A DNA stretch of 64,000 nt from Candidatus Woesearchaeota archaeon (GCA_964411565.1 CAYPLB010000003.1:29953-93952), one strand, 5' to 3'; shown: positions 10,232 through 29,218, counted from the stretch's first letter. The notes: generated by a model not told the origin, from the letters alone. Numbers and translations are program-made.

Positions 10232-10337
10232 GGGGTAGTAGTTTAACTTGGCTAGAGCAGTCGGCTCCAACCCGACAGATCGGGGAAACAATCTACATAA
10301 TGGAGAATGTTCCGAAATTCAAATCCCTGCTACCCCA
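10232..10337 (+). tRNA. tRNA-Trp (anticodon CCA) with a putative 32-nt non-canonical intron between positions 53 and 54
   Basis: Acceptor GGGGTAG/CTACCCC, D-arm GTTT-AACTTGGCTA-GAGC (two G-U pairs), anticodon arm GTCGG-CTCCAAC-CCGAC, variable AGAT, T-stem CGGGG/CCCTG, T-loop TTCAAAT, discriminator A. A 32-nt insertion (10286-10317) separates the T-stem 5' strand from the T-loop. The reverse strand also gives an anticodon arm (UGG) but no T-arm. Confidence 0.5.
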
Positions 10338-11004
10338 TTTTTTTAAAAGTTTCATATTTTTTTAACTTTCTTTCATTTTTAGGTTCAATTTGCTCAAAGA
10401 AATTTTTTATACTTGTACTTTTTCTAATTACTACTTGATGAGTATTACCTCTACAGATATAGGAAGAAATACCTAATTTTTTTAATACTTCATGTATGTC
10501 TTTTGCAAATTTATAAGACTTCATTGAATATTTAATCAAAATATAATTATAACCTTTATCTCTTTGTAAAGTTACACACCCATCAGTGTCAAATAAACCT
10601 CTAAGAAATGCAGCAAGATGAGTATTTTTTGAAAGTAAAGAATGAGGTAATCTAAGATTTGTTTTAGGACCTACAGGACATTGAAGATAAATTGAAAGAA
10701 AATTAAAAATCGTTTTTGATCTACCTCTTAAAGTATAACAATTACCAAAAGTTTCATGTTTTAAATTTATTCCAAAAAGATCTTTAAATAAATAATCTAT
10801 TCTTGCCATATATTTAACATCAAATCTGGAATCTCCTGCATATGTAAAACAATAGTCAGATTTTTTAGAATCACACCTTAAACATCCATCTCCATAATGA
10901 ATCCCTAAGAACTCAGAAAGTTTTATGTCCATTTTTTTGGGAAGAATTATTCCTCTAGATAAATCGTTTCTACCTCTTTTTATAATATTAATATCAAAAT
11001 CCAT
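10330..11004 (-). CDS. free-standing LAGLIDADG homing endonuclease
   Basis: Two LAGLIDADG-type motifs (LGIHYGDGC and LRGLFDTDGC) spaced as in double-motif enzymes. The 3' end overlaps the last 8 nt of tRNA-Trp on the opposite strand. Confidence 0.75.
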   Translation of the reverse strand: MDFDINIIKRGRNDLSRGIILPKKMDIKLSEFLGIHYGDGCLRCDSKKSDYCFTYAGDSRFDVKYMARIDYLFKDLFGINLKHETFGNCYTLRGRSKTIFNFLSIYLQCPVGPKTNLRLPHSLLSKNTHLAAFLRGLFDTDGCVTLQRDKGYNYILIKYSMKSYKFAKDIHEVLKKLGISSYICRGNTHQVVIRKSTSIKNFFEQIEPKNERKLKKYETFKKMG

Positions 11005-11088: not shown

Positions 11089-11538
11089 TCAAGCAAAAGA
11101 AGAACTTGATTGAGAAACAGATTTTTCTATTTCAATTTTAAAATCAGGTTTTATTTTGTAAACATGATTATGTTTATTATATTCCATTTCATCAACAGCA
11201 TATCCAGTAATAATTGTACTGTCTGTTTTGAAATCATAAATAATAGAAAACTCTACATCTTGTTCTAATAATTCTAAATATTTATTGAATTTTGTTTCAA
11301 ATTCACTTTGAAAATTAGAGGAAGATGCTTCCTTTGCAGCAAGATTTGCTGAGAGTTCAATATAATAAATATCTTTTTCAGCTTCAAAATAAGTGTTAAA
11401 TAATTCAATTTCTTTTTCTCCAAGATATAAATCAGATCCCCCAGGAGAATTTTTCCCAGTATTACCATAAAACATAAAGAGAGCTATAATGAAACCTAAA
11501 CATACAATGTACATGAAAACAGCTGCTCTTTTATTCAT
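11089..11538 (-). CDS. hypothetical N-terminally anchored protein in pilus-like locus
   Basis: MNKRAAVFMYIVCLGFIIALFMF signal-anchor; 4-nt start/stop overlap with the next gene. Confidence 0.4.
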   Translation of the reverse strand: MNKRAAVFMYIVCLGFIIALFMFYGNTGKNSPGGSDLYLGEKEIELFNTYFEAEKDIYYIELSANLAAKEASSSNFQSEFETKFNKYLELLEQDVEFSIIYDFKTDSTIITGYAVDEMEYNKHNHVYKIKPDFKIEIEKSVSQSSSSFA

Positions 11539-12086
11539 TCGTAAACCTCCAAAACAACTTTTAATTTTTTATTACCATCAACTTCAGGAATATTAAGTTC
11601 AGCACTATAAGGATTGTCTATGTCAATTATAATAGGTGTACAAAAGAAAATCATTTTATCTTCTTCATTATATACACTAATATACCAATCTGAAGAAATT
11701 GGATCAAGATAAGTTTCTAAATAAGCTACTAAAACATCATCACAAGATAATCTATCTGAAAATTCAGATTTTAAAAATCCATTAAATAAAAAACCATCTT
11801 GAGGCGAAGGATAATTCCTACCTGTGTAAGACAATATTTCTCCTAATGTATAATCATCATCAATTTGAAGTTTCATTAAATTAATTAAGTCAGTATCTAA
11901 AAATTCTGCGTCCATAGCATTTACTTCATTATTATTTGGAAGAATTGAATCCATTATATTTCCAACACTAAATTTAGAAACAAAATTAAAAGCTATTAAA
12001 ATAACAATAATCACTGCAAGAATAACTAGAGCAGTTCCAAACTCTGTCCAATCATCGAACATTGCAAATCCTTTTTTCTTTAACAT
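11535..12086 (-). CDS. prepilin-like protein with class III signal peptide
   Basis: MLKKKG|FAMFDDWTEFGTALVILAVIIVILIAF: basic N-terminus, [KR]G cleavage motif, hydrophobic helix. Confidence 0.55.
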   Translation of the reverse strand: MLKKKGFAMFDDWTEFGTALVILAVIIVILIAFNFVSKFSVGNIMDSILPNNNEVNAMDAEFLDTDLINLMKLQIDDDYTLGEILSYTGRNYPSPQDGFLFNGFLKSEFSDRLSCDDVLVAYLETYLDPISSDWYISVYNEEDKMIFFCTPIIIDIDNPYSAELNIPEVDGNKKLKVVLEVYE

Positions 12087-12562
12087 TCTATCAACTCAAA
12101 ATTGAATTCTAAAATTGAATTCTTTATTTCTCCATTATCATATACTTGTACTATTTTGTTTATTGTTTGTTTTTCATTGAATTCTTTATCACCAATAGAT
12201 TTCCCATTTAAAGTTAAACCCATTTTTGTATCAATAAATCTTCGCATAACTTCAAATTCTAAATTATCAGGATCTAAATAATTAAAACAGGAACTAATAT
12301 TACCATCATTAAATTTATTTAAGTCAATAGTACCAACAACAGTCCTATCAATGTCTTCATTAAAATAAGCTATACAATCTGAATCTGTTAAAACCTTAGC
12401 TAACATAATTTCATGATAAATAGGATCAACACACTCAGCTTTAATCTTTTGTGTATCAGTAGTAATATTTATGAAAGCAAGAAAAAGAATTGAAACAACT
12501 AAAATACCTACAATAAAATAAATTAATTTTCCTCCAATCATTTGACCTTTATTTGTTTTCAC
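12080..12562 (-). CDS. prepilin-like protein with class III signal peptide
   Basis: MKTNKG|QMIGGKLIYFIVGILVVSILFLAF, a KGQ-type (EppA-like) cleavage motif. Confidence 0.6.
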   Translation of the reverse strand: MKTNKGQMIGGKLIYFIVGILVVSILFLAFINITTDTQKIKAECVDPIYHEIMLAKVLTDSDCIAYFNEDIDRTVVGTIDLNKFNDGNISSCFNYLDPDNLEFEVMRRFIDTKMGLTLNGKSIGDKEFNEKQTINKIVQVYDNGEIKNSILEFNFELIEC

Positions 12563-12896
12563 TGGTTAAGTCACCTCCTTTAGATTCGAGATGTAAAGTA
12601 TAATTTGAAAAAAGATTCGTGAGTTTAGTATTTTTTAAAACATTAACAATTGAATCATCAATTTCTACTTCATAAGTAGATTTAACACTGTAATCATATT
12701 CAATGAAACCTGGAGAAGCAGTCATTGTTTCTGAAAGTAAAGATAAATCCTCTTGTAAGTAAAATTCGTTTATAGTAGAATAAGAATCAGGGTTCATTGC
12801 TAAAGAAACTAAAATACCTAAAATCATAATACCTAAAATAAGTTCTATTATGTAATAAGACTGAAGTTCTATACCAGCTTGGCCTCTTTTATTCAT
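12549..12896 (-). CDS. prepilin-like protein with class III signal peptide (start trimmed to internal Met)
   Basis: MNKRG|QAGIELQSYYIIELILGIMILGILV, with Q at +1 and E at +5. The listed ORF extends to 12983 but the upstream part lacks pilin features. Confidence 0.55.
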   Translation of the reverse strand: MNKRGQAGIELQSYYIIELILGIMILGILVSLAMNPDSYSTINEFYLQEDLSLLSETMTASPGFIEYDYSVKSTYEVEIDDSIVNVLKNTKLTNLFSNYTLHLESKGGDLTSENK

Positions 12897-12968
12897 AAGT
12901 CTATATGAGCTTTTTTTATTTATATAATTATAGGAAGATTTAAAATGTTTTAAGACTAAGAAATAAAT

Positions 12969-13172
12969 ATGAAAGATGGACATAAAAGAAGTTTTTTGAA
13001 AACTGTAAGTTATAGAATTTCTTCAACAATATTAACTGCAGTAATTGTATTTATTTTTACAAGAAATTTAACACTATCCTTAGGAGTTGGTGCAGCTGAA
13101 TGGATTTTTAAGTCTATATGGTATTATGGACATGAAAGACTTTGGAATTGGACAAAATGGGGTAAAAATTAA
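12969..13172 (+). CDS. small membrane protein, DUF2061-like
   Basis: ...SYRISSTILTAVIVFIFT...EWIFKSIWYYGHERLWNW resembles the conserved YY.HER.W motif of the DUF2061 family; sits between divergent pilin genes. Confidence 0.4.
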   Translation: MKDGHKRSFLKTVSYRISSTILTAVIVFIFTRNLTLSLGVGAAEWIFKSIWYYGHERLWNWTKWGKN

Positions 13173-14203
13173 ACAAAAGCTTGTTCTTCCTCAGTTTCTT
13201 GAATATTAGAAAAATCATACTCATAAGGAACAAAAGATAATTTTGAATCCTTGAATAATAAAGTTGAAGAAACTTTTATTTGGGTATTATCATTAACTTC
13301 CCCATTAACATAAGGAGAAATATAAGTGTAAGCATTAGTTTCGGTATCAACAACATCACCATAACCAACAACTTCAGTTATTTCTAAGTTGTAGAGAGTT
13401 ATTGCATCAGCACCTTCTAATTCATCATTAAATTCTACAGCATTAGCAATTTTTGTTTCAAAACTATCTGAAGATAAAATACTTGAAGTAGCTAAATCAA
13501 TAAGTTCTACTTTATCTGTGTAAAAATTTAAACCAGTATCATAATTTAAAAATTCTAAATCTAATTCACAAGGAGCTTCTCCAGTTTTTTCTAAACAAGA
13601 TTTGTAAGTATTAGTTTGTTCTTCAAAACTAGACACAAGTAATTTTTCTGTTGATGTAACACAAGTGTCATCGTCACAGAAATAAATAGTATTACCAAAT
13701 TTTTCATATGTTAAAAACATTAAAGAATCATCTTCACCTTCTCTTAAAACACCATTAGAAGGACAAGTTTTGTCAAGGAAAGTTAGTTCAGTATTATCAA
13801 ACTTTTTACAACCCATTAAATTATCAATACAAATATCTTCTAAGTCAGAGATTATTGAAAAAAATGGACCTTTACAAATACATAAACAAGGATAACCACC
13901 ACATTCATCTTTGGGAATTGTAATCTCTTCTTTACAAGGTTTTTCTTCACCCTTAAAGTCATTACCATTATTGAAAGAAACTAAATAATGATTTTCATAT
14001 AAATAAAATAAAGTAGAATTTGCAGTACCATCATCTAAATTATCAATATTAAAAGCTAAAGATTTGAAACTTTGAGTTGTCTCAGAAGAATCTATTAATT
14101 CTTTTCCAATAATAACTGAAGCAGCAATACCAACTACAGCAACTATCATAGTTATTGTTACAAGGATTAAATAATCCGTAGCTCCTTTTTTTGTAGATAT
14201 CAT
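13169..14203 (-). CDS. large pilin-like/adhesin protein with class III signal peptide
   Basis: MISTKKG|ATDYLILVTITMIVAVVGIAAS followed by a 300-aa Cys-containing ectodomain. Confidence 0.55.
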   Translation of the reverse strand: MISTKKGATDYLILVTITMIVAVVGIAASVIIGKELIDSSETTQSFKSLAFNIDNLDDGTANSTLFYLYENHYLVSFNNGNDFKGEEKPCKEEITIPKDECGGYPCLCICKGPFFSIISDLEDICIDNLMGCKKFDNTELTFLDKTCPSNGVLREGEDDSLMFLTYEKFGNTIYFCDDDTCVTSTEKLLVSSFEEQTNTYKSCLEKTGEAPCELDLEFLNYDTGLNFYTDKVELIDLATSSILSSDSFETKIANAVEFNDELEGADAITLYNLEITEVVGYGDVVDTETNAYTYISPYVNGEVNDNTQIKVSSTLLFKDSKLSFVPYEYDFSNIQETEEEQAFV

Positions 14204-14385
14204 TCTATAGCTAATCCTTCAGTAGCTTGGCCTAATTCTGTACCTAAAGAAGAGGAAGTACCTGATAAACTTTCTACAAAAGTACCAATCTGATCTTGGA
14301 ATATAATAGCAATAACAATTAGTACCATTAAAGCTAGAATCAATAAGATCATAAATCTTAAAGTTAATTCACCTTTTTTTGTCAT
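14200..14385 (-). CDS. minor pilin-like protein with class III signal peptide
   Basis: MTKKG|ELTLRFMILLILALMVLIVIAIIF; 61 aa. Confidence 0.55.
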   Translation of the reverse strand: MTKKGELTLRFMILLILALMVLIVIAIIFQDQIGTFVESLSGTSSSLGTELGQATEGLAIE

Positions 14386-14420
14386 ATTAAAATTAAAAGA
14401 ATAAAAGTATTTAAAAGTTA

Positions 14421-14756
14421 CTAGGAAGAATCCTTACACTCACCATCATCCCAAGTTTTCTTTAAATTGAAATAGTCGTTGTTACAATCAGTTATTTTAC
14501 TACCACTATTATCTTCTAAAGTATCTGGGAAACCAGGATTATTCCAACTTGTTTCATCATCAGTTGCACAATAGAGACTACATTTAGATTTGTACAAAGC
14601 TAATTGCTCTGTGGAAGTTGAACCAACTTCTTCTGTCTGTTTAAATAAAGCACCTAATCCTCCTGTGAAGAAAAGAGCAACTAAGATCAAAGCAATTAAA
14701 GCAAGAACTGCTAAGATTACGAAATTTAAAGAAATATCCATACCTTTTTTATTCAT
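14421..14756 (-). CDS. pilin-like protein with class III signal peptide
   Basis: MNKKG|MDISLNFVILAVLALIALILVALFF; small Cys-containing globular domain. Confidence 0.55.
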   Translation of the reverse strand: MNKKGMDISLNFVILAVLALIALILVALFFTGGLGALFKQTEEVGSTSTEQLALYKSKCSLYCATDDETSWNNPGFPDTLEDNSGSKITDCNNDYFNLKKTWDDGECKDSS

Positions 14757-14808
14757 TGTGTTACACCTCTTAGTATATTTATATGAGAGAGATATTTAAA
14801 GTTTTCTA

Positions 14809-15678
14809 TCAAACACTTTCGATTTTATGACAATATTTTACATCAGAAGCTGTAAAGAAATCTACAACTTTGGTTCTATCTGATGCATCTACACCAAAAC
14901 TGTAATAATTGTCTGAAGGGAAAAATTCTGATAATGGACGTTCAATTAAATCAGAAAGTATACAAATTCTAGTATCATCAATCTTGTAAAATATAGGTGC
15001 AGCTTTTAGTGTATAAGAATAACTAGATTTATCATCGCAAGTTGGAGGCCATGCAGCACAAAGATCTTGTGCTACTTTTTTATCTTCATAAAATTCAAAA
15101 GTATAATCTGCACCTTTTTCAGTAGGATTTTTATTTGTTCTATCATCTTGCCAATAAACATATAAGTGGTTTACTGAACCTTTGTCATCACTTATGATTT
15201 GAAAATTCTCTGGAAAAACACAACCCATATCATTTGGAGTTAATACAAAAGCTCCAGGATCTTTTTTTGTAACCATTAAACCTAGAGTATAAGGTTTTGT
15301 TTCTCTCGCTTCATAAGTTCCATCATCATTATTAATAACAGAAACTACAGATGCACTTTGATCATATACATTTTGAATTAAGTAAGAAGAAGATTCAGAA
15401 ACAGCTCCTAAAGTTTGAGAATAACATAAACATTCAGTTCCAGCTATTGTATTGAAACCACCATAACAATAATCATCAATATTTGAAAATAATTTTTCAA
15501 AAGATTCTACAGTTTGAGTTGTTGCTTCAGCTTCTTTATCTTGAACAAAAACTTTGTCAAAACTATCAGTTATAATACTAAAAATTTCACTAGATTGTTC
15601 GTTAAATACAACTCCAACTACTAAAATGATTATTAAAATAATAATTGCTGCTATAATAGTTTGTCCTACATCTGCCAT
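14809..15678 (-). CDS. pilin-like/secreted protein (weaker class III signal peptide)
   Basis: MADVG|QTIIAAIIILIIILVVGVVF has a G|Q cleavage-like motif but lacks the basic residue. Confidence 0.4.
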   Translation of the reverse strand: MADVGQTIIAAIIILIIILVVGVVFNEQSSEIFSIITDSFDKVFVQDKEAEATTQTVESFEKLFSNIDDYCYGGFNTIAGTECLCYSQTLGAVSESSSYLIQNVYDQSASVVSVINNDDGTYEARETKPYTLGLMVTKKDPGAFVLTPNDMGCVFPENFQIISDDKGSVNHLYVYWQDDRTNKNPTEKGADYTFEFYEDKKVAQDLCAAWPPTCDDKSSYSYTLKAAPIFYKIDDTRICILSDLIERPLSEFFPSDNYYSFGVDASDRTKVVDFFTASDVKYCHKIESV

Positions 15679-15679
15679 T

Positions 15680-15847
15680 TTATTTTCCTAGTACTTTTGT
15701 TGTTAAATATACAATTGTTTCAAGAGCTTTTTCTTTTAATGTAGAAGAAAAAGCAATTACTGCAATTAATACAATTATTACAAGTATAAATGCTGCAATA
15801 TATTCCCAAGCAATATCTCCTCTTTTATTATGCAATAAGGCTTTCAT
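15680..15847 (-). CDS. minor pilin-like protein with class III signal peptide (start trimmed)
   Basis: MKALLHNKRG|DIAWEYIAAFILVIIVLIAVIAF from the internal Met. Confidence 0.45.
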   Translation of the reverse strand: MKALLHNKRGDIAWEYIAAFILVIIVLIAVIAFSSTLKEKALETIVYLTTKVLGK

Positions 15848-16709
15848 CCAATGGTGGACCATATACCAAACACCCCCTGTAAGTTGGATCTTCATCAAGA
15901 ACAGTATCTAATAAGATTTGATTAGTTACTTCAGTACTAGTATCAGTTAATAAGAATATTGCTGACCCTCCTGCAACTGCTAAAGAACCTCCCATAGTAA
16001 GAGGAGCAAAGAAAATTCCAGCAGCAAATATCTGTGGTAAAGCCCATAATTTAGCCATCCCAGTAATAAGACTATCAACATTCTCAGCTTCAAAATTTTC
16101 ATTAGTAGTAATTAAAATTCTGTCATCATCACTATCTCCAATTAAATCCTGATCATCATAAAATATAATGTAATAATATTCATCTTTGACTAATTTTTTA
16201 TCAGGAATCCCTTCTGATTCTATATCAAAACATAAAGTTTGGTAACCTGTATTTTGTTCTAAATAATTATAAGCAGAGTTTGTAACATCTGTTTTTACAC
16301 CATCTTTGTAAGCTATTGAATATGCAAAATATTCTTCTAATGAAATATCTTCTTGAGGAACAATTGCATAAACAAAATAAGTTTCATCAATAGCAGCACC
16401 AAAATCACAAGCTCCTTCTTTAAACATCCACCAAGTATCAGTTAATTTTGTAGAAAATTCCTCCATAACAATAGGTTCTTCTATTACATTGAATCTACAT
16501 GCAGAAGGAAAATGTGAAAAGAAACCACCACCACATTTAGCAGTGTTTGTTAACCAACAAGAAGTTTGAGAAAAAAAGTCAGCAGTAAAAACTCCCTTAG
16601 CACCTAATACTATTCCAGTAATACTAAGAATTACAACTACTGCAATAATTAGAAGAACTGTTTGCTCTGGAGCAAGTTTACCTCTTTTATTTTTAACCAA
16701 TGATTGCAT
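15828..16709 (-). CDS. pilin-like protein with class III signal peptide
   Basis: MQSLVKNKRG|KLAPEQTVLLIIAVVVILSITGIVLG followed by a 250-aa ectodomain. Confidence 0.55.
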   Translation of the reverse strand: MQSLVKNKRGKLAPEQTVLLIIAVVVILSITGIVLGAKGVFTADFFSQTSCWLTNTAKCGGGFFSHFPSACRFNVIEEPIVMEEFSTKLTDTWWMFKEGACDFGAAIDETYFVYAIVPQEDISLEEYFAYSIAYKDGVKTDVTNSAYNYLEQNTGYQTLCFDIESEGIPDKKLVKDEYYYIIFYDDQDLIGDSDDDRILITTNENFEAENVDSLITGMAKLWALPQIFAAGIFFAPLTMGGSLAVAGGSAIFLLTDTSTEVTNQILLDTVLDEDPTYRGCLVYGPPLDESLIA

Positions 16710-16792
16710 TTTTTACACCTATTAAAATTAATGTAACAGCTAGAAACAAAACTAAAATTGAAATTAATATTACTAAAGTTCTCCCTGTCATT

Positions 16793-18952
16793 TTATATCT
16801 GTCCCACCGATAGTGCTAATAAGTTGAAAGCAAATATTGTAACACCAGCAATTAATATGTATAAGAGTGTCCCTCTATATAAATTTTTACCTAAAGTATA
16901 TTCTTCATTTAATTTGTCTACACCATTCTCAATACCATTTGCAAGAATTGTTAAAACTATAACCATTTGTACAACATAAATTCCAACAATCATTTGTAAA
17001 TAAAATGGAGGAATAATTTTATCAACTGGGAAAATGTTGGCAAGATTACTAGCACCAGCTAAAACACTTGTGTCAGAACCAGAAGTTGCAGAATCTAATG
17101 AAGTTCCTAAACTAGAAATTATAGCAGTAATCATAGTACCTATTCCAACTACAATTCCAGCAATTAAAGGAGTTAAAAAACTAACTTGTGATTTCATTGA
17201 AGAAGTAATTTCGGATAACAAATCTTTTAGCCTTTCAGAAACTTTGTAAATTTTATCTAAATAATCAGCAATACTTAACAAAGCTCTTGATACAACCATA
17301 GGACCCTTTCTAGAAGATTCTACTAAGACTTTCATAGTACTTTCAATTAAAGAAGAAGGATAAGCAAGAATAGCTCCATTTGTTTCATTGAAAATTGCAG
17401 CCTGTAAATTCATTCCAAGACTTCTAATATTTTTATCAACTATACCTAAAAATTTTCCAGTAGGTGTTCCAGCTAAACCTCTAGCTACTTCACCGAAAGC
17501 CATCTCTGAAGGCATACCACCACCAATCCTATTTCCTAATTGGAAAATAGCACCCCTAAATTCTGTTTCAAGTTTTTTTGTTTCTTCTCTAATTTTTATT
17601 AATTTGTTTGCTCTTATTGAAAAATAGGAACCTATACCTAAAGCTAAAGCAATTGGAATGAATAAACTTAACATAGTAGCACCAAGACCAAAAGGACCTA
17701 TTGTAGTACCCGCATCAGTTTCTCTGTAATCTAAAAGTAGAATATTATCTGTTAAAAAAACTTCAGTAGATGGATCAATAAAATGTAAAATAATTGGAGA
17801 AAAACCAATTAATAAAAGTATTACAAGTAAGAAAATAGCTATGTGTTTGGGTTCAATAAAAATTTCATTATCTTTAGAAAGTTTAAGAGAAAATTTTCTA
17901 AGTTTTTCAAATTGTGGAAGATTAGTAATATCTGATTGAGCATAACCTATTGGCCTCTTTGATAATAAAGTGTAACCAAAATAAAATACTGCAAAAGGTA
18001 AAAGTAAATTGTAAAGAATAGCTATGTGGAACCATTTAATCCCCATAAAACTTCCAATTAAAGGTAAAATGATTAAACCTAAAATAGGTAAGATAACACC
18101 CATCATGTGAAGCATAGTCATAGGAGACTTGACCTCTTGAGCATAGTGAAGCATACTATCATATGTTCCTTCTAGAATTACTGAAAGAGATTTTTCTAAA
18201 AGTTCAATTCTTCTTTCATCTTTCCCTTCAAAAAGAGAAGATTCAATTAAATGAAAAGATTCAACAAAAGCTAAGTTGTAATCCTTCCAGCCATTTAAAT
18301 AAAATTCTAAAGATTCTTGGACAGTAGGAAATCTTTTTGTTTCAGCATCCCATAAAATTTTTCTTAAGTCTAAAGATAAAGGTTCTCCAACATGTTCACC
18401 AGCAAATTTAATTGCATGTTCTAAATTAGATGTGTGACGCATGTAAATTACTGTGTACAAAACACAAAGTACCATTTGATTAGAAGCTTGAAGTCTTCTC
18501 TTCTGTGCTAAATGCTGAGGAAATTTTGATAAAGGTAAGAAAAGTAAAACTCCACAAAGAACAATCATAAGAGGAACTAAAAGTTGCATAAAACCAAATA
18601 AAAATGTTAAAAACCAAACAACAAAACCTAAGAAAATAAATGAGAACATTGTTAAAATTGCAAAAGTGTAAGCTGCTGCAGGAGTTATGTTTAAATGGAT
18701 TTGATCAATAGCATCCTGCATTTCTTTTTTTACTTCTTCCTTTGCAGGAGCAAAATCAATTATTGAATGTGCAAAATTACAAGCTCGCTCATAAAGAGAA
18801 TTTTCTAAGTGAAGAGCCTCTTTTCTAAAGGTTTCATAATCCTGAGTAAATTTACCTGAAGAAGGTTGATCCATTAAAGAATCTGTATCAGAACCCAACT
18901 TAGCACCATACTTATCCATCACCTTCCGAAATCTCGGATCTATCTGCACCAT
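16793..18952 (-). CDS. large polytopic membrane protein, candidate pilus assembly platform (TadC/FlaJ-like)
   Basis: 719 aa with many TM helices, immediately downstream of the prepilin genes on the same strand. Family assignment rests on context and topology, not on a motif I could read. Confidence 0.4.
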   Translation of the reverse strand: MVQIDPRFRKVMDKYGAKLGSDTDSLMDQPSSGKFTQDYETFRKEALHLENSLYERACNFAHSIIDFAPAKEEVKKEMQDAIDQIHLNITPAAAYTFAILTMFSFIFLGFVVWFLTFLFGFMQLLVPLMIVLCGVLLFLPLSKFPQHLAQKRRLQASNQMVLCVLYTVIYMRHTSNLEHAIKFAGEHVGEPLSLDLRKILWDAETKRFPTVQESLEFYLNGWKDYNLAFVESFHLIESSLFEGKDERRIELLEKSLSVILEGTYDSMLHYAQEVKSPMTMLHMMGVILPILGLIILPLIGSFMGIKWFHIAILYNLLLPFAVFYFGYTLLSKRPIGYAQSDITNLPQFEKLRKFSLKLSKDNEIFIEPKHIAIFLLVILLLIGFSPIILHFIDPSTEVFLTDNILLLDYRETDAGTTIGPFGLGATMLSLFIPIALALGIGSYFSIRANKLIKIREETKKLETEFRGAIFQLGNRIGGGMPSEMAFGEVARGLAGTPTGKFLGIVDKNIRSLGMNLQAAIFNETNGAILAYPSSLIESTMKVLVESSRKGPMVVSRALLSIADYLDKIYKVSERLKDLLSEITSSMKSQVSFLTPLIAGIVVGIGTMITAIISSLGTSLDSATSGSDTSVLAGASNLANIFPVDKIIPPFYLQMIVGIYVVQMVIVLTILANGIENGVDKLNEEYTLGKNLYRGTLLYILIAGVTIFAFNLLALSVGQI

Positions 18953-18978: not shown

Positions 18979-19536
18979 TTATTTATATAGTTGTTGGATT
19001 TCTTCAAAAAGTTCAGGAAGTTCTTTGTAGATCTCAAAATGAGCTCTGTTTTCTAAAACTATAGACTTTGCATTTAATTTTTCTTCAAAAACCTTTGCTT
19101 CAGAAACTGGAACATATTCATCATCTGTTGAAAATAAAGCTATAAATTTTTCACAATTCTGTTTTACTTTTTCTAAATCAATAAAAATTTCTAACCAAGG
19201 ATTAGCTATTTCAACATCATCAGGATGATCTGTTAAATCTAAATGAAAAAAACCTGCAACAAAAAAAGAAGCTTTTACCTTTTTATCAAATTTTTCTAAG
19301 AATCTAATTATAGTTTGACAACCCATACTATGACCAATGAAAATTGATTCTTCATCAGCATCTTTTGCAATTTCTTGTAAGTGAGGAACCCAAGTTTCTA
19401 TTTTAGGTTCTCCTGGATTTGGCATTTGAGGAATAATAACTTCAAAATTTAGTTCTTCTAATTTATTTTTTAACCAAGGAAACCAACAATTATAAGGATG
19501 ACCTTCCCAACCATGAATGATATATGCTTTTTTCAT
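18979..19536 (-). CDS. alpha/beta hydrolase, YdeN/RBBP9-like serine hydrolase family
   Basis: MKKAYIIHGWEGHPYNCWFPWL...IFIGHSMGC (GxSxG nucleophile elbow); 185 aa. Confidence 0.65.
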   Translation of the reverse strand: MKKAYIIHGWEGHPYNCWFPWLKNKLEELNFEVIIPQMPNPGEPKIETWVPHLQEIAKDADEESIFIGHSMGCQTIIRFLEKFDKKVKASFFVAGFFHLDLTDHPDDVEIANPWLEIFIDLEKVKQNCEKFIALFSTDDEYVPVSEAKVFEEKLNAKSIVLENRAHFEIYKELPELFEEIQQLYK

Positions 19537-19573: not shown

Positions 19574-21751
19574 TTATAGTTTTTTAAATTTTAGTAATAA
19601 AGAGTTAGTTACAACACTAACACTACTTAGTGCCATAGCACCACCAGCAATTATTGGAGAAAGTAACCAACCTGTGTAAGGATATAAAACACCAGCAGCA
19701 ATTGGAATTCCTAATACATTGTAAAACAAGGCCCAGAATAAATTTCCTTTAATTTTAGACATTGTTAACTTACTAAGTTTGATTGCTTTTGCAACATCAA
19801 CAGGATTGTCTCTCATCAAAACTATGTTTCCAGTTTCCATTGCTACATCAGTTCCAGAACCCATAGCAATTCCAATCTCAGCCTGAGCTAATGCAGGTGC
19901 ATCATTTATACCATCACCAACCATTGCAACTTTTCCTTTTCTTTGTAACTTCTTTACATAATTTGCTTTATCTTTTGGTAAAACTTCTGCGAAAACATGT
20001 TTAATTCCAACACTTTTTGCAATAGCTTTTGCAGTTCTTTTGTTATCTCCTGTAATTAAGTATACTTTAATTCCCATTTTCTTTAATTTGTAAACAGCCT
20101 TACCAGAAGATTCTCTAAGATTGTCAGCTACTGCAATGATTCCAAGTAAAGTTTTTCCAGAACCTAAGAACATTACTGTTTTTCCTTCTTCCTCTAAAGT
20201 ATTAATTTTTTCTAAATGTTTTTTTAAATTTACTTTATTATCCTTCATTAACTTAGTATTACCAAAGAAATAATCTTTTTTTCCGATTTTAGCTTTGATT
20301 CCATGACCAGGTAAAGCTTTGAAATTTGTAGATTTAGGAATTGTAATTTTTTCTTTCTTTGCATAATTGATTATAGCTTCAGCTAAAGGATGTTCAGATT
20401 GTTTTTCTAAAGCTGCAATAATTTTTAAGATGTTTTTATTCTTTCCTGTAATAATTAAATCAGTTAGTTCAGGTTTACCTTTTGTAATTGTACCTGTTTT
20501 ATCAAAAATAACATACTTAATTTTATGAGCTGTTTCTAAAGCTTCTCCACCTTTGATTAAAATACCTTTATTTGCACCTTTACCAGTACCTACCATGATT
20601 GCAGTCGGTGTTGCTAAACCTAATGCACAAGGACAAGCAATTACTAATACAGCTACAGAAGCAATTAATGCAAATGAGATTCCTGCACCAAAAGTTACCC
20701 AAGAAATAAATGTTATCAAAGCAATAGCAATTACAGTAGGTACAAAATAAGCAGAAACTAAATCTGCAAATCTTTGAATTGGAGCTTTTGTTTCTTGAGC
20801 TTCTTCAACTAATTTAATAATTTGTGCTAAAGTTGTATCTGCTCCAATCTTAGTAGCTTTAAACTTGAAAGACCCTAATTTGTTTATAGTTCCACCAATA
20901 ACTAAATCCTTGATATTTTTCTCGACTGGAATACTTTCTCCAGTAATCATACTTTCATCAATAGAAGAATGGCCACTGATTATTTTACCATCAACAGGAA
21001 TTTTTTCTCCAGGTTTTACAAGAATAATGTCTCCTACAATTACTTCTGAAATAGGAATTCTTATTTCTTTTTTATTTCTAATTACAATTGCAGTCTTTGG
21101 ACTTAAACCCATTAACTTTTTTATTGCATCAGAAGTTTTACCTTTAGCAATCGATTCTAACCATTTGCCCATAATAACTAAAGTAATCAAAATTGCTGAG
21201 GTTTCAAAATATTGTCCTAAAGTTGGATTAAATAAAACAGCATAAACACTAAAGAAATATGCAGCACTTGTACCAAGAGCAATTAAAGAATCCATGTTAG
21301 CAGTTTTGTTCTTTAATGCTGCCCAAGCACCTAAATAAAATCTTTTTCCAACATAAAATTGAATTGGTGTAGCTAAAGCCCATAAAATATACTCTTCATA
21401 AGGAATATGAATCTTAAGCCACATAAAAATCATTCCAATAACAAAAACAGGAATAGCAAAAATAAGACTAAGAAAAAACATTTTTTTGTAATAATTTATT
21501 TCTTTCTTTAAGAAATTTGAATGTTTGTCTTTTAATCCTTTAATTTGTGATGCATCATAACCTTTACTTTTAATAATTTCAATAATATTTTTTTCTGAAA
21601 TCTTTTTTTCATCAAAAACAATTTTAGCTTTTGATGTTGCAAAATTTACAGTAGCATCTTGCACACCTTTGGTTTTCTTTAAAGATCTATCAATTATAGT
21701 TGCACAACTAGCACAATGCATTCCACTTATTTGCAAATTTGTTTTTTTCAT
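19574..21751 (-). CDS. copA: copper-translocating P1B-type ATPase
   Basis: N-terminal HMA domain GMHCASCA, the CPC motif ([11 protein letters not shown]), DKTGTIT phosphorylation site and GDGINDAP hinge. Confidence 0.92.
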
Positions 21752-21799: not shown

Positions 21800-23248
21800 T
21801 TATCCTCCACAACCACAACCTCCACCACAACCTCCGCCGCAGCCTCCGCCACTTCCACAAGAACTACCTGTAGGAATAGCTGCAACTTCATTTATAGATT
21901 CTTCAAGGTCTTCACTAGAATAATCACTAAGATCATCAACTACAATAAATGAACCAGGAATCATACCCATCCAACAACTCCAAGAAATTATACCTTCTTC
22001 TGTTGCAGTAAATTCAATTGTTTGTTCACCATATTCAATATCAAAATATAAATCTAAACTTGGAACTTGTATAGCATTGTTACAACCAGTTATTTCTTCA
22101 GCATTAATTATCCAACGAACAGGAACATCTTTTTCAATAACAAATAAATCTGTTTGCCAACCATATCTGTCAACAGTCATATAAATCTCTTGATAACCAC
22201 TCTTCATAACAGCTAAACTATCTGAATCTACTGAATCAACATTGGAAGCTGTAACTTGTCCTATAATAGAATTAAAATCATAACCTGTTCCAGTTAAGGC
22301 TAATGCATTGTTAACCATTAATAATCCTAAGATTATTACAATTGCACCTGATGCTTTTAAAATTTTGTGAGTCATTTTGCTGGAAACTAAACTTGCAAAA
22401 AAACCAAAGCCAAGCATAACAGGTAATGTACCTAAGGCAAAAACAAAAAGGAGGGTTGCACCTTCAATAACACTACCAGTTCCTGCTGCCATAATATAGA
22501 TTGCTTGCAAAGGGCCGCAAGCAATCATAAGTCCATTCAGTAGGCCAATTATCAAAGGACTAGAACTTCTGTTTTTCCCTACAAACTTGTTAAGGAAACT
22601 TGGAGTTTTGAATGTTAATTTTCTTAATATTGGAAATATGTTTAACATTTTTAATCCAAAAATTACTAAGAATAAACCAGCAATTAATCCAGCAATTCCT
22701 CTCATCATTGGAGTGAATGCAATAATTGAACCAATTAAACCAAAAAAAGCACCAATTAAAGTGTAGGAAACAGTCTTACCTAAACCATACATAAAATGAG
22801 ATTTGTAAGATTTTCTTCCAGCTTCAGCATCTTTTGCTGTGTATGAAACAACAAAACCACCACACATACTTATACAATGAAAACCAGTTAGTAAACCAAC
22901 AACAAATAATAAACCATAACTCATACTAGAACTTATTTCAGGTAATTGAATAGCATTTGTCAAATTAATTAGGAAATATAAGGCAATAAATATTCCAACA
23001 ATAGCAAATGCCCAAGCCCAATATTTTCTTTTTGAATTGTTTTGATCACAAGAATAACCTTTTTCAGAAATTTTTGATTTAATATTTTTTAAAGAAATCA
23101 AATCAGGATCAAAAGTTACTTCTGCTTTTGAAGTTGTATAATTTATTTTAAAGTTTTGAATTCCATCTAAGTCTAAAACTTGTTTTTTAATTATCTTTTC
23201 ACAAGATTCACAAGTCATACCATCTACTTTAAAATTTTCTTTTTTCAT
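21800..23248 (-). CDS. HMA-domain membrane protein with C-terminal cupredoxin-like domain and Cys/Gly-rich tail (putative metal transport/binding)
   Basis: N-terminal HMA (GMTCESCEKI), about 8 TM helices including an HC...MCGG segment, a C-terminal soluble beta-domain (SWSCWMGMIPGSF), and a terminal GSSCGSGGGCGGGCGGGCGCGG encoded by a GC-rich island. Confidence 0.5.
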   Translation of the reverse strand: MKKENFKVDGMTCESCEKIIKKQVLDLDGIQNFKINYTTSKAEVTFDPDLISLKNIKSKISEKGYSCDQNNSKRKYWAWAFAIVGIFIALYFLINLTNAIQLPEISSSMSYGLLFVVGLLTGFHCISMCGGFVVSYTAKDAEAGRKSYKSHFMYGLGKTVSYTLIGAFFGLIGSIIAFTPMMRGIAGLIAGLFLVIFGLKMLNIFPILRKLTFKTPSFLNKFVGKNRSSSPLIIGLLNGLMIACGPLQAIYIMAAGTGSVIEGATLLFVFALGTLPVMLGFGFFASLVSSKMTHKILKASGAIVIILGLLMVNNALALTGTGYDFNSIIGQVTASNVDSVDSDSLAVMKSGYQEIYMTVDRYGWQTDLFVIEKDVPVRWIINAEEITGCNNAIQVPSLDLYFDIEYGEQTIEFTATEEGIISWSCWMGMIPGSFIVVDDLSDYSSEDLEESINEVAAIPTGSSCGSGGGCGGGCGGGCGCGG

Positions 23249-23442
23249 TCTAACTTATAACCTTCCTTTTCTATTGTTTTTTTTATAGTCTCAAGAGAAG
23301 TTTTATTTTCATCAAAAGTTATTGTAATAATATCTTTTTCAAAAGAAATATCTTTAACCCTTAAATCTTCTAATGAGTCTCTAATTAGCATCTCACAACT
23401 TTTACAATGCATACCTGTAATTTTGAATTTTTCTGTTTTCAT
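23245..23442 (-). CDS. copZ: copper chaperone (HMA domain)
   Basis: MKTEKFKITGMHCKSCEMLI; 65 aa; 4-nt overlap with the upstream gene. Confidence 0.8.
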   Translation of the reverse strand: MKTEKFKITGMHCKSCEMLIRDSLEDLRVKDISFEKDIITITFDENKTSLETIKKTIEKEGYKLE

Positions 23443-23541: not shown

Positions 23542-24072
23542 CTAAAATTTCTTCTTCAAGAAAATTTCTTTAGTTTTACCTGATTCTTTCCTATAAATGA
23601 TATCTCTTTCTTCAAGTTTTTTTAATACTAAGGATAAAAGAGTTTTTGAGATTCCTGTTTTGTACCTCAAAGTAGACTGTTTGATACCTTCTTTATCATA
23701 AACTGTTTTCAGAATTTTTTGTTCTTGATCATTAAAACCAGAAATAAATGCTTTAAATTCATCTTTTTCTTTTGCTGTTTTTAATGCAGATGAAACTTCT
23801 TTGTGTTGTGCAACTAACATTTGTTGAGTTTTATCAAAGTAAATAAGATAAATCCCAAGTATTAAAATTGCTAAAGTTATAATTCCTCCAAGATATAATA
23901 ATGTGAAATTTCTATCCTCATGTAAACAAGTACCATCATCTAAGTAACATGAACCTTGCTCGTCGATAATTGTTGAAATATATTGATCTTGTTGTGCTTT
24001 AAAAAAGAAGAGAAATACTAATAATAATACTGCCATAATAATTAAAATTAGACCAATTTGCTTCTGATTCAT
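23542..24072 (-). CDS. membrane-anchored winged-helix transcriptional regulator (candidate metal-responsive regulator)
   Basis: Two TM helices flank a short Cys-containing loop (QGSCYLDDGTCLHED). C-terminal wHTH (...GISKTLLSLVLKKLEERDIIYRKESGK). First gene of the cop cluster on this strand. Confidence 0.5.
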   Translation of the reverse strand: MNQKQIGLILIIMAVLLLVFLFFFKAQQDQYISTIIDEQGSCYLDDGTCLHEDRNFTLLYLGGIITLAILILGIYLIYFDKTQQMLVAQHKEVSSALKTAKEKDEFKAFISGFNDQEQKILKTVYDKEGIKQSTLRYKTGISKTLLSLVLKKLEERDIIYRKESGKTKEIFLKKKF

Positions 24073-24103: not shown

Positions 24104-27100
24104 TTACTGATTTTTCAATTCTTCTTTCAACCAAGCTTCCCATCTTTCTTTTATCAACTTAGTATCTTGAGTTCCCACTTCTTGTTTAACTTCATCAGAA
24201 ATCCTATAGAATTTTTCATTTGATTTTAAGGAAAATTGAGCTTCTAAAATATCTTTATTATTTATTTTTTTAGAATAATCTACTAATAAAGATTTAATCT
24301 CTGCTCTTAGTTTTATGTTGTCCCAAATAGCATCCCAATTACCAACCCATTCTTTTACACTACCACCTATTGCCTTCAATACTTCTGAATCACCATTTAT
24401 TAAATCAGGAGTAGGTTCTAATAAATCAGTTTTCGCATTGTATTTCATTAAGTCTACAAAACCACCTTCTTGTAAAGGATCGTCTTCCCAAGTTTTTCTA
24501 ACCTCAGTAATAGAAGTTACTCTTCTCATTTTACTTAAACCTGAAGCAGATTGAATAGGAGAACACATAACAATAATATCAGTAGCTTTGAAGGAAGTTT
24601 TAGGAACACCTAAATCATTTACAACTCTGTCATAAATACCATAAGGAGAATCACCGTGAATAGTTCCTGCAACTACATTAGCAGAAGCACCAATTCTCAT
24701 TGCTTCATAAAGTGCAACAGCTTCGGTACTTCTCACTTCTCCTACAATCAATGCAGAATCTCCTAATCTTAAAGAAGTTCTAATTCCTTCATCAGCTGGA
24801 ACCTCAGTACCACCTTTAACTAAAGCTGATCTAACTTTTAATGGTTGAACATTGTAACCAAGTTCTCTCATTGACTCTGTTGGGAGTTCTAAAGTGTTAT
24901 GAGCAACAATATTATTACAAACAAAACTTTCATTACTTGGAACTGAGAGATCATAAACAAATTGTTCTTCATTTTTAAGTTTTTTAATTTCAACTATTTT
25001 ATCCCAAAAAATATTTGATTCAGATAAAGATTTTAATTTGGAAAGAATGATTAAATCTGAAGAAAATAATTGAGTCATAAAACCTAATTTAGTTCTTCCA
25101 ATGTTTGAATTTGAATTTATATAATCTCTTGAATTGAAATTTTTATTTAAAACTTTTAATTTTTTCTTAAATTCTAAAGATAAAGGAATTATATCAGAAC
25201 TATCATGTGTAGAAGTTTTTAAACATAAATTTCTTAGATTATCTTTTTTATATTCTTGTAATAAATCTATGTGTTCTTTAAATAAATTAAAATCTCTAAT
25301 AGTAGATATAGCTCCAGGATAAGAATTAGAATTTTTACTAATCTTCCTTATTCTAAAAATTATTCCAAATTGAAGAAGAAGTGTCTGTATATCCTCCATT
25401 AATTTTCTAGAATTAAGACTAATTACAATTTCTTTATTACTAACACAACCATCACCAGAAAATAAACCACATAAAATACATGCAATTTGAGCTTTTGATA
25501 GATTATAAATCCAACTTGGAACTCTTTTTGTAAAAGCATTCCCTTTAAATTCTAGAATCTCTCTAAATAAGAATTTTAAAGTTTTTGAATGTAATAAGGT
25601 TGAGATTCCATCTGAACTATGAATCTTTGGTTTAATTCCCCATTTTTTAGCAAATCTCTTAATTACATTTCTTTCTTCATTTGTACTAACTGAAAAAATT
25701 ATACTATTCTTATCATAACAACCATCAGCAAGCCAAAGACCTATTAGAGTTAGAAAATCCTTGTCCAGTTTTATTTTTATAGGCATCCAAAAAGAATTAT
25801 GACCACATTTCCACTCAATTCCTTTTAAATTACTAATATTAATATTTAAAGAGTGTAAGTCAGATAAAATTTTTCCAGGAATAAGTCCTAATCTAAACCA
25901 TTTATTTCTTTGTGCTTTTTTATAACCATGTTCTTTAGCAAGTTGTTTTACTTCAAATTTATGTTTTTTTAAGAATTCCTTAATATTTTCTCCTCTAAAA
26001 TATAATTTACTCATATGAGAAGGAAATTGAGTGATGAAAAGTTTACTAATACTTAAATTATTATTAATATACTCTCTGGGTGAAGCAATGTAATCTCCTT
26101 GTTTAAGTTCTCCAGTTTTTATTTCTACAATATCTGCATCAGAACCTAAAGTAAATAATGAATGATCTCCAGTTACTTTTATAATTCTACCAGTTGAAGT
26201 TCTAACTTCAAAAATATCTTTCTTAACTTTATGACGAATAAATTTACTTACTTTAGAAAAATTTATTTTTCCATCTTTAGTCATAGATAAAACTTCAATA
26301 TTTAAAGGATTGCCGCAAATTTCATGTTCAGATAAATTATACCAAGCCTGATAGTTTTCAATTTGTTCATTAACAAGATCTCCAATTCTTCTTCTTTTTA
26401 TTAAACCATTCTGTTTGATTAACATTTCACAATCTTCAGTAACACTATCTTCAACAGTCAAAATTCGGTATTTCCTCATAATTTCTAATAAAGTAGAACC
26501 AAGGAAAGATGTTTTTCCAGAAGATCTTGTTCCTGCTACTAAATGTGTTCTTGAACCATGAATTGTAAAACTTAAAAGACCAGCACCTAAAGGTGAAATC
26601 ATTTTATTTTCAATGAACAAAGGTAAAGTCCAAGGTTTATCTCTGTGTCTTCTAAAAGACATACCATAACCATAAGGATTTAATGGTTTTCCAATAATTG
26701 AAAGTCTTGATCTTGCTTTAGGTAAAACTACTTCTGTATCCAAAATAGGGTTTGCTTCGTCTAAAGGTCTTCCAGAAAGTAATCTTAACTTTGTTGCCCA
26801 ACTTTCAAAATCATTTTTTGTGGGTGTAATATTTGTTGTACATTCATTGTGATCATTGTGTAAAAGGAAAATTGGAACTTGACCCATTGGAGAGTTAATA
26901 GTTAAATCTTGAACATTTGGATCTTCTAATAATAATTCAATAACACCAAATCCAATTGTATGTCTTACTAGAATTTCAGTTAAATTTTCTATTTCTTCAG
27001 GAGAAAGCAACATCCCTTTTTGTTCTGCAAGCTCTTGGATCATACCTTTACCTATGTTTGTAAAAGTTTTTCTCATTTTATGAGGATCTAAAAATTCTTC

Positions 27101-28074: not shown

Positions 28075-28542
28075 ATGGCACAAGAACCTGTACAAGTGGA
28101 TTTTACCCAAGCTATGAATGAATTAGCTAATAGGCTAAGAGTTTTAGAAGGTAAACATGGAACTTATGCTGAGAAATTATTAGTAATGAATCAAAATATG
28201 ATTGAAGAGTATAAAAAAACAATGAGTGAGTTTAAAGTTATTAGGCAAAGTTTAGCTGATATGACAAAAGATATCGATGCTGTGAAAAATGTTGTAAAAC
28301 ATTTAAGTGATGAAGCAGGGAAGTTTGCAAAAAATCAAGATGTGAAAGTTCTCCAAAAATATGTTGACTATTGGAACCCTATGAATTTTATGACAGAAAA
28401 AGATGTTTTAATCTTAGTAGATAAAGTTTTAGGAAAGAAAGGAATAGTCCATAAAAGAGTTGAGAAAATGGAGAAAGAAATAGAAGATAGTCTTGAAAAT
28501 AAATTTGAATTAAATACAGAGGAAGAAAAAGATGGCAAATGA
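28075..28542 (+). CDS. hypothetical coiled-coil protein
   Basis: 155 aa, predicted helical; 11-nt overlap with the next gene. Confidence 0.4.
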   Translation: MAQEPVQVDFTQAMNELANRLRVLEGKHGTYAEKLLVMNQNMIEEYKKTMSEFKVIRQSLADMTKDIDAVKNVVKHLSDEAGKFAKNQDVKVLQKYVDYWNPMNFMTEKDVLILVDKVLGKKGIVHKRVEKMEKEIEDSLENKFELNTEEEKDGK

Positions 28543-29218
28543 AATACCAATTAGTGAAGTTTTAGACCTAATTAAGAAAGGTTTAAGTAATGAAGAGATT
28601 ACTAAACAATTAGAAGCAAAAGGTTTTAATTTGCAACAAATTTCAGATGCTATTAATCAAGCTAAAATAAAAGAAGGAGTTGAAGGAAATATGCCAGAAC
28701 AAAATATGCAAGAACAACAAGCACAACAACAAAGTGCGGAGCAAGAAATTCCGTTACCACAAGGTACACCAGAAGGTCAAAATCAAGTTCAAGGAGTTAC
28801 AGAAGTGCAAGGTGGAATGCCTATGCAACAACAAGATCAATATCAACCTGCTCCACAACAAGCTTATCCACAACAAGGTCAAAGTTATGGAGATATGCAA
28901 GCACTAGTAGAACAAATTATTGAAGAGAAGTGGCAAGCAATGATGAAAGATGTAGGAGATATTAGAGTATTTAAATCCAGAGTTGGAGATGACATGGAAT
29001 CTGTAAAACAGGAACTTATGAGAACACAAAAGAGATTAGAAGATTTACAGGTTGCTGTTATGGGTAAAGTAAAGGATTATAATGATGGAGTTGTAAAAAT
29101 TGGAAGTGATATGAAAGCTCTTGAACAAGTATTTACAAAAATTATGGAACCTTTAACCTTAAATGTAAAAGAATTAGGAAGAATTACAGAAAGTTTAAAG
29201 CATAAAAAGAAAAAATAA
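28532..29218 (+). CDS. hypothetical Gln-rich coiled-coil protein
   Basis: Small N-terminal helical domain, a Q/P-rich low-complexity linker (QEQQAQQQSAEQE...QQQDQYQPAPQQAYPQQGQ), and a C-terminal coiled-coil loosely similar to the upstream ORF. Confidence 0.4.
   Translation: MANEIPISEVLDLIKKGLSNEEITKQLEAKGFNLQQISDAINQAKIKEGVEGNMPEQNMQEQQAQQQSAEQEIPLPQGTPEGQNQVQGVTEVQGGMPMQQQDQYQPAPQQAYPQQGQSYGDMQALVEQIIEEKWQAMMKDVGDIRVFKSRVGDDMESVKQELMRTQKRLEDLQVAVMGKVKDYNDGVVKIGSDMKALEQVFTKIMEPLTLNVKELGRITESLKHKKKK

Follow-up and report, generated by a model that had tools for sequence, protein, structure and literature searches.

Described filament systems and the locus in the window

Among the described systems comparable with the locus reported here are two conserved CpaF/TadC loci with coiled-coil proteins, found by Hamm et al. 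(2024; PMC11291902) across cluster-2 DPANN (Woesearchaeota, Pacearchaeota, Nanoarchaeota, Nanohaloarchaeota and Aenigmarchaeota) and supported by proteomics in Ca. Nanohaloarchaeum antarcticus. The present locus lies in a 64,000-nucleotide (nt) stretch of the genome of a Candidatus Woesearchaeota archaeon (GCA_964411565.1, CAYPLB010000003.1:29953-93952; positions are counted from its first letter), referred to below as the window. A platform-like gene and an array of small genes occupy positions 11089-18952, and an assembly ATPase is encoded at 24104-27931. The locus probably encodes the subunits and the assembly apparatus of an archaeal type IV filament machine that is Tad/Epd-like and conserved throughout Woesearchaeales (GTDB Nanoarchaeota), and the filament is most likely adhesive. 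This kind of system has already been reported in DPANN and is not a new kind: as in the loci of Hamm et al., a CpaF-like ATPase, a TadC-like platform and filament proteins are encoded with coiled-coil genes alongside. By architecture and description, the window may correspond to 'locus 1' or 'locus 2' of that study; its supplement contained no locus tags that could be mapped onto Woesearchaeal loci, and its main text does not mention the intein, the copper-cluster insertion or the fixed set of ten class III genes described below. Woesearchaeota were not covered by Makarova et al. (2016; PMC4858521).

According to a preprint (10.64898/2026.04.22.720090), DPANN systems are mostly of an Epd-like 'system 1', characterised by two platform genes, many pilins and a major pilin without a globular domain. 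The window resembles system 1 and the Epd pilus of Methanococcus maripaludis in having many class III proteins in one cluster (about 11 genes), in its occurrence in DPANN, in its kinship with bacterial Tad and in a putative major pilin without a globular domain. It differs from them in that a single gene for a protein of 719 amino acids (aa) holds both platform halves in place of two genes, in that Gln at position +1 (a trait of EppA substrates) is found in three of the ten window proteins, and in that the prepilin peptidase of related loci is weak on the FlaK model.

The Tad/Flp pili of bacteria (type IVc) share with the locus the order ATPase, fused TadB-TadC platform, Flp, and TadE/F-sized and larger pilin-like proteins. 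The likeness is greatest to tad-2 of Micrococcus luteus, in which TadB and TadC are fused and where Tad/Flp pili support natural transformation (PMC4322843). Also shared are a Flp-type pilin (45-60 aa when mature) with a G/XXXXEY motif and an ATPase about as near to CpaF as to any archaeal structure. In contrast, TadZ/CpaE, a secretin and other envelope parts were not noted in the locus, no Flp or TadE family match was obtained in Pfam/NCBIfam scans of the window, the window ATPase measures ~750 aa with an unmatched N-terminal region of 295 aa, and the host is an archaeon. Platform proteins of the PilC/GspF/FlaJ family (T2SSF, PF00482) also have two cytoplasmic helical bundles alternating with transmembrane segments, and EpsF, OutF and PilC match the window platform in fold. 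The window protein differs in being longer than the 3jc8 PilC chain (316 residues), in a region of ~90 aa before the first predicted transmembrane helix and in a beta-containing segment (~354-420).

The platform protein

The 719-aa polytopic membrane protein is encoded on the minus strand (16793-18952; a start at Met12 is possible and would give 708 aa), and ten small open reading frames (ORFs) come after it, from 16709 down to 11089. An earlier note on this DNA had described the pilin genes as followed by the 719-aa gene; in the direction of transcription, that gene is upstream. From its modelled fold, the T2SSF matches of its relatives and synteny, the protein is concluded to be a divergent two-domain T2SSF platform, like a fused TadB-TadC or FlaJ, with two T2SSF-type cytoplasmic helical bundles and ~9 transmembrane helices. 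The AlphaFold2 model (predicted local distance difference test, pLDDT, 74; predicted template modelling score, pTM, 0.70) was compared with known structures using Foldseek. The best whole-chain match was the PilC model 3jc8 (type IVa pilus machine), and the cytoplasmic domains of EpsF (2vmb/3c1q, probability 0.98-1.00) and OutF (5nbg, probability 0.97) were matched with template modelling scores of 0.68-0.74 and a root-mean-square deviation of ~3 Å.

For comparison, 80 related loci were taken from species-representative genomes, all of them Woesearchaeota/Nanoarchaeota metagenome-assembled genomes (loci labelled L001 onwards). A platform relative was encoded in at least 230 species-representative stretches, a profile search returned 1265 representative clusters, and more than 3400 homologues were 47-89% identical over their full length. 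None of the homologues carried a precomputed Pfam domain and a few were named 'TadB' by the Joint Genome Institute. A profile of 28 platform sequences matched nothing among PDB sequences; with a 59-sequence alignment reaching down to 23% identity, the sole PDB sequence matches were to EpsF (E=0.086), in the second cytoplasmic bundle. The T2SSF profile search proposed in the earlier note gave no match for the 719-aa protein itself, and 29 of the 59 full-length relatives matched Pfam T2SSF (best E=3.2e-10), in the N or the C half; the GspF-like family Spore_III_AB was matched by seven of the 59. An internal-repeat test failed on the shallow alignment, and on the deeper one the N and C halves aligned weakly and in register (hhalign, E=0.003, probability 10%). 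The platform-like character that the earlier note had assigned to the protein is borne out by the fold and by the T2SSF matches of its relatives; the contrary outcome which that note had named, an unrelated transporter family, was set aside because the protein matches no transporter family.

The assembly ATPase, its intein and its displacement

The gene at 24104-27931 (minus strand) encodes an assembly ATPase of the T2SSE/FlaI/CpaF superfamily as a precursor of 1275 aa, with a spliced extein of 758 aa. The extein matched Pfam T2SSE (E=3.3e-12) and, among PDB sequences, afGspE (4.5e-25), CpaF (9e-24, 86.6 bits) and FlaI (1.9e-12, 49.2 bits). Two NCBIfam models, FlaI (119 bits, cutoff 550) and TadA-family (115.5 bits), both scored far below cutoff, and the match to the bindosome ATPase BasE was weak (53.8 bits). 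Extein residues 1-295 and the C-terminal tail matched no family or solved structure. A region of ~295 aa at the N-terminus is conserved in this ATPase family, and the full-length extein measures ~750 aa in all related loci.

The ATPase is interrupted by an intein of 517 aa with a LAGLIDADG homing endonuclease (24896-26446, minus strand; precursor residues 496-1012; Pfam Intein_splicing 1.2e-26, LAGLIDADG_3 2.4e-17). The first residue of the intein is Ser, its last two are His-Asn, and the +1 residue is Thr. The insertion point is ..TVED|TLELP; the same site reads TVEDTLELP in inteinless relatives and IED|SVTGD in intein-bearing ones. An intein was present at this site in ~12 of the 72 ATPase-carrying related loci and missing from L006 (89% identity), so its presence is polymorphic and, judging from this distribution, the intein is probably mobile.

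In 72 of the 80 loci the ATPase gene is on the same strand as the platform gene and upstream of it, usually within tens of bases and mostly abutting. The sole gene between the two in L003, L007, L008 and L012 (~73-75% platform identity) encodes a Ser_hydrolase-family alpha/beta hydrolase (18979-19536 in the window, minus strand; Pfam Ser_hydrolase 4.6e-21), which is missing in more distant loci. The window and the loci nearest to it (L001, L006 and L081-L083) additionally have a copper cluster between ATPase and platform, a place from which it is missing in most loci. In the window, the cluster starts with a membrane-anchored MarR/TrmB-type regulator (23542-24072; Pfam MarR 2.6e-7), which stands between ATPase and platform in the window, L006 and L081-L083 only, and continues, likewise on the minus strand, with an HMA chaperone (23245-23442; Pfam HMA), an HMA-DsbD_2 membrane protein (21800-23248; Pfam HMA and DsbD_2, the latter 2.6e-45) and a copper P-type ATPase (19574-21751; E1-E2_ATPase in precomputed matches). 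This nested pattern across the related loci supports displacement of the ATPase by insertion, and the 80 loci support the earlier note, which had attributed the displacement to an inserted copper cluster. Comparison of the loci indicates that the hydrolase is the older insertion and the copper cluster the later one, and points to ATPase-platform-pilins as the ancestral operon order. The order of the array is alike in AR20 and other distant complete genomes: a ~290-aa gene and a ~50-aa gene are followed by p111-like and p61-like genes (named after the window proteins described below).

The array of class III genes

Nine of the ten small ORFs encode proteins with canonical class III features, namely a basic leader, a [KR][KR]G/A site and a hydrophobic helix, with the motif kept in orthologues; the tenth (14809-15678) has no motif. 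The ORFs were located where the earlier note had placed them. Its nine tandem prepilin-like genes stand as to the nine canonical members, and the tandem arrangement does not, since there are ten ORFs in all and the run is broken by a plus-strand gene for a small DUF2061 membrane protein (12969-13172; Pfam E=1.1e-14), inside the array between the genes for p344 and p144. The DUF2061 gene was seen in the close relatives L006 and L081 and not in L002, whose gap at this place measures 72 bp; it seems to have been inserted into the array recently. Overlaps of 4 nt, which had been described as chaining the genes, occur at two of the nine array junctions (14200/14203 and 11535/11538). At the remaining junctions, the genes overlap by 7, 14 or ~8-20 nt or are separated by gaps of 1, 35, 52 or ~270 nt. 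The G+C content is ~27-30% over the whole window, and a compositional break at the locus is absent.

Class III signals were predicted with a FlaFind-like rule that asks for [KR][GA] among residues 1-14 and, after it, for a run of 17 uncharged residues whose mean Kyte-Doolittle hydropathy is >=2.3. The signals claimed in the earlier note held up under this rule, with eight strict matches inside 11089-16709 against 0-1 in each of the codon-shuffled copies of the window (n=30). Two matches were obtained in the rest of the 64 kb: a Sec-type signal (193-1632) and an internal fragment. Looser matches were given by 12549-12983, if started at MNKRGQ (12896), and by 14809-15678 (MADVG|Q). In alignments of positional orthologues, [KR][KR]G, or Ala at -1, was kept in nine of the ten groups while the flanks varied. 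The -1 residue was Gly in all p111 (21/21), p61 (11/11) and p144 (13/13) orthologues and in 27/30 of those of p293; for p72 there were 14 Gly and 4 Ala among 18. Counted over the 9 kb that follow the platform gene, strict class III ORFs had a median of 7 per locus in the 36 related loci whose downstream flank reached 8 kb or more; across related loci, their density was 0.77 per kb downstream of the platform versus 0.10 per kb elsewhere. These motifs suggest that the class III proteins would undergo signal cleavage. Gln at +1 is conserved in the p144 (11/13) and p160 (10/19) groups only and is found in ~14% of class III ORFs across related loci; the EppA-type KG|Q motif named earlier was overstated, and the label is unjustified given this distribution and the three Gln-bearing proteins among the ten.

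An all-against-all BLAST of the ten proteins detected similarity in the N-terminal helix only (best pair p111/p61: 35% over 52 aa, E=1e-7). A recent pilin expansion was rejected, because nothing more than this helix is common and each protein has positional orthologues; what had been called an expanded pilin repertoire consists of ten non-paralogous proteins in a fixed order kept across Woesearchaeales.

Candidate filament subunits and larger class III proteins

The best major-pilin candidate is p111 (14421-14756, minus strand, as are all ten array genes; MNKKG|MDISLNF..), which combines a near-invariant N-terminal helix with a variable head containing four invariant Cys: this pairing of an unvarying helix with a head that varies and is disulfide-bonded is the classic pattern of a major pilin, and from it we infer which protein is the major subunit. 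Among its homologues (n=44), mature residues 1-33 were 92% pairwise identical and the rest 40%, a contrast inflated in part by the search, which required 5-residue words in common. The LSxN...GG helix can also be made out in distant loci, AR20 among them. An AlphaFold2 model (pLDDT 81) consisted of a long N-terminal helix and a small head, and the gene is preceded by a strong GAGGTG ribosome-binding site.

Two shorter proteins have no globular domain. One is p61 (14200-14385; MTKKG|ELTLRF.., KKG in 11/11 orthologues), whose N-terminal helix is paralogous to that of p111 and which scored 27.3 bits with Pfam Flp1_like, below the gathering cutoff of 33.5; TTTAAATA is located ~30 nt upstream of its ATG. 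The other is p72, a Flp-type short pilin (15680-15847; 55 aa from MKALLHNKRG|DIAWEY, with a mature form of ~45 aa; annotated with 55 or 60 aa in other assemblies). It carries G/XXXXEY, the Flp processing motif of Tad pili (PMC4322843), and had no Flp-family match in the Pfam scan. Of 18 orthologues, 16 have Glu5, and most of the close ones also keep Tyr6; distant loci still show G|ExxWE.

Three array proteins are large and Cys-rich. The most widely retained accessory protein, p293 (15828-16709; KNKRG|KLAPE, 6 Cys, K-[KR]-G in 27/30 orthologues), was present in 28 loci by tblastn, while a homologue search returned 8 proteins only. Its second hydrophobic segment, towards the C-terminus, is confined to close relatives, the C-terminal transmembrane segment being variable. 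The second, p289 (14809-15678; 8 Cys), is N-terminally anchored; its orthologues read M..EAP.T, the canonical class III site is absent, and Pro occupies the position of the -1 Gly in 6/10. The third, p344 (13169-14203; STKKG|ATDY.., 12 Cys), was identified in the class III scan, keeps K-[RK]-G in its orthologues and is, from its sequence features, a candidate tip protein or adhesin.

The remaining four proteins are of minor-pilin size. They are p144 (12549-12896; 115 aa from MNKRG|QAGIE, also called as 115 aa in other assemblies; RG in 13/13 orthologues), p160 (12080-12562; KTNKG|QMIG.., class III scan), p183 (11535-12086; LKKKG|FAMF.., class III scan, 3 orthologues recognised only) and p149, the last class III protein of the array (11089-11538; MNKRA|AVF.., KK[A/G] in 11/11 orthologues).

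Archaeal pilins are usually glycosylated. N-x-S/T sequons were scarce in the ten array proteins (4 observed versus 13.9 expected from composition), whereas 83 were observed versus 52 expected in the other window proteins. The ectodomains of the array proteins are Cys-rich instead of sequon-bearing, which is unusual for archaeal pilins.

Neighbouring genes and the prepilin peptidase

Peptidase_A24 genes with archaeal C-terminal domains were found in L064 (21045-21959, minus strand; Pfam 1.3e-15) and L079 (21295-22089, minus strand; 1.4e-9), on the opposite strand and a few kb past the last class III gene; a fragment was found in L076 (~17482-17640). The score of the relatives' peptidase on the FlaK model was 46 bits (cutoff 330).

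Divergently from the ATPase gene, two coiled-coil-type proteins of 155 and 228 aa are encoded (28075-29218, plus strand), with weak coiled-coil family matches and heptad a/d enrichment over most of their length; the second has a Gln/Pro-rich linker. The genes are syntenic with the ATPase in 61/80 and 58/80 loci, and PDB sequence searches with the two proteins returned noise only. By analogy, they are probably counterparts of the sigma-1-like coiled-coil proteins beside DPANN pilus loci (Hamm et al., 2024). Next to them, three tandem paralogous proteins of ~185 aa with five predicted transmembrane segments and no family match are encoded (29234-30893, minus strand). This trio is syntenic with the ATPase and coiled-coil genes in ~50/80 loci; it may be part of the machine, or its position may reflect mere genome collinearity. 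The possibility that the three are five-transmembrane prepilin peptidases (some relatives contain 'GGGD') was rejected, there being no Peptidase_A24 match and no likeness to the real A24 genes.

Directly after the last class III gene there is a free-standing LAGLIDADG endonuclease gene (10330-11004, minus strand; Pfam LAGLIDADG_3 5.8e-18), found also in L006 and L081-L084. The product of 193-1632 (plus strand), a secreted protein of 479 aa with a Sec-type signal and weak DUF11 repeats, is possibly a surface protein unrelated to the pilus locus.

Proposed assembly of the filament

What the analysis shows is the gene content, the conserved cleavage motifs, the fold of the platform, and the synteny together with the history of insertions; on this basis the following course of assembly can be proposed. 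The intein would splice out of the ATPase precursor, and the spliced ATPase, presumably a hexamer, would dock on the 719-aa platform at its two T2SSF-type bundles. Cleavage of the nine precursors after [KR][KR]G/A would fall to an A24 prepilin peptidase with its gene outside the window. The short pilins p72 (with the Flp motif), p61 and p111 would then polymerise via their conserved N-terminal helices, p111 being the likeliest main subunit. The proteins of 115-183 aa could act as minor or priming pilins, and the large Cys-rich p293, p289 and p344 as tip, adhesin or anchoring parts. The filament formed in this way would most likely be adhesive, possibly to a host cell; a role in host attachment is plausible.

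Evidence against this reading and alternative explanations

In its core, the earlier note agrees with the analysis: the locus is type-IV-pilus-like and comprises a platform, about nine prepilins and an ATPase of FlaI/VirB11 type that has been displaced. Several results nevertheless weigh against the reading of the locus as a Tad/Epd-like filament machine. The 719-aa protein reached no Pfam or NCBIfam threshold, with PF00482 below reporting level, and its whole-chain Foldseek E-values were weak (>=0.24), the domain-level matches alone being convincing. The ten small proteins likewise had no Pfam or NCBIfam match above threshold, which leaves no pilin with a curated family match above threshold; p289, having no cleavage motif, was not counted as a prepilin, and a Foldseek search of the PDB with the p111 model found no structural neighbour. 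As to the subtype, the FlaI and TadA NCBIfam models score the ATPase about equally. A motif scan of the 64-kb window and a tblastn search with the peptidases of two relatives found no A24 peptidase gene, as the earlier note had stated; the A24 genes near the array in relatives indicate that the lineage has the enzyme. Finally, these genomes are largely collinear, and synteny by itself is therefore no proof that the coiled-coil genes belong to the machine.

Some of these observations suit a different view of the array, in which a part of the ten proteins, or most of them, would stay outside the filament as surface or membrane proteins with class III signals (like the Sulfolobus bindosome) or as membrane-anchored assembly factors. 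The missing motif of p289, the second hydrophobic segment of p293 in close relatives, the three large proteins without pilin-like family or fold evidence and the weak BasE match (53.8 bits) all point that way. We regard it as unlikely, since p72, p61 and p111 have typical pilin size, motifs and conservation, and since Pfam and NCBIfam scans found no substrate-binding-protein domain in any of the ten. That the locus serves rotary motility as an archaellum is hardly credible: FlaI was indeed the best NCBIfam match of the extein (119 bits), but this score is far under the 550-bit cutoff and on par with the TadA-family score, and afGspE and CpaF ranked well above FlaI in the PDB sequence searches. 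Moreover, neither the ten proteins nor the products of the neighbouring genes matched an archaellin or FlaF/G family, and the surroundings of the ATPase and platform genes, as well as the stretch between the two, are free of FlaH/KaiC-like genes in the window and in related loci.

The same machine might also have a main job other than adhesion, serving an auxotrophic DPANN cell as a retractile or uptake filament for DNA or nutrients. In M. luteus, where TadB and TadC of the tad-2 cluster are likewise fused, Tad/Flp pili support transformation (PMC4322843); CpaF-type motors are described as able to power extension and retraction alike (PMC11300603), and biosynthesis is described as reduced in DPANN archaea. 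An uptake role is a live, if rather unlikely, alternative: no ComEC/DprA-like or DNA-binding gene was noticed in or beside the locus (in a search of the window that was not exhaustive) and large Cys-rich surface proteins suit binding better. Decay was considered as well, given that ~5 kb of unrelated genes separate ATPase from platform and that the ATPase depends on protein splicing: the locus would then be a remnant that makes no filament, its ATPase uncoupled by the insertions and interrupted by the intein. All genes are intact, though, and the same arrangement with identical proteins occurs in several independent metagenome assemblies, and again at 89% identity in L006. Contigs identical to this one are held by the samples ERZ23499079, ERZ23498658 and JGI 3300008627. 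Ser1, His-Asn and Thr+1 are all retained in the intein, ~12 other loci have an intein at this site, and the platform is 47-89% identical across the order; a decaying locus is accordingly very improbable. The adhesive Tad/Epd-like filament machine remains the preferred reading.

Implications for Woesearchaeota

A groundwater study took pili as a mark of candidate phyla radiation (CPR) bacteria, since type IV pilus parts were thought missing from DPANN, and He et al. stated that these parts are missing in DPANN. Routine annotation with hidden Markov models overlooks the locus because its platform and pilins fall below family thresholds, and as the locus shows, threshold-based annotation can create the impression given by He et al. 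A further proposal, which we put forward tentatively and hold to be doubtful, is that the locus represents a distinct order-wide Tad/Epd-like subtype, building a host-contact or host-penetrating filament of episymbionts. Such a subtype would be set apart by a fused platform that Pfam does not see, by an ATPase of ~750 aa whose N-terminal domain is peculiar to it, by three short pilins that are conserved together and of which one carries the Flp motif, by heads rich in disulfides and poor in sequons, and by coiled-coil partners. If true, this would explain why type IV pili were reported 'missing in DPANN'.

The comparison also provides a dated insertion order, the hydrolase and then the copper cluster, for the splitting of an ancestral operon. 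The filament candidates p111, p72 and p61 and the adhesin candidates among the large Cys-rich proteins offer concrete targets for metaproteomics and imaging. Pili are leading candidates for the host attachment of ultra-small symbionts and, as the conservation of the locus shows, the full complement of assembly and subunit genes is present in Woesearchaeota.

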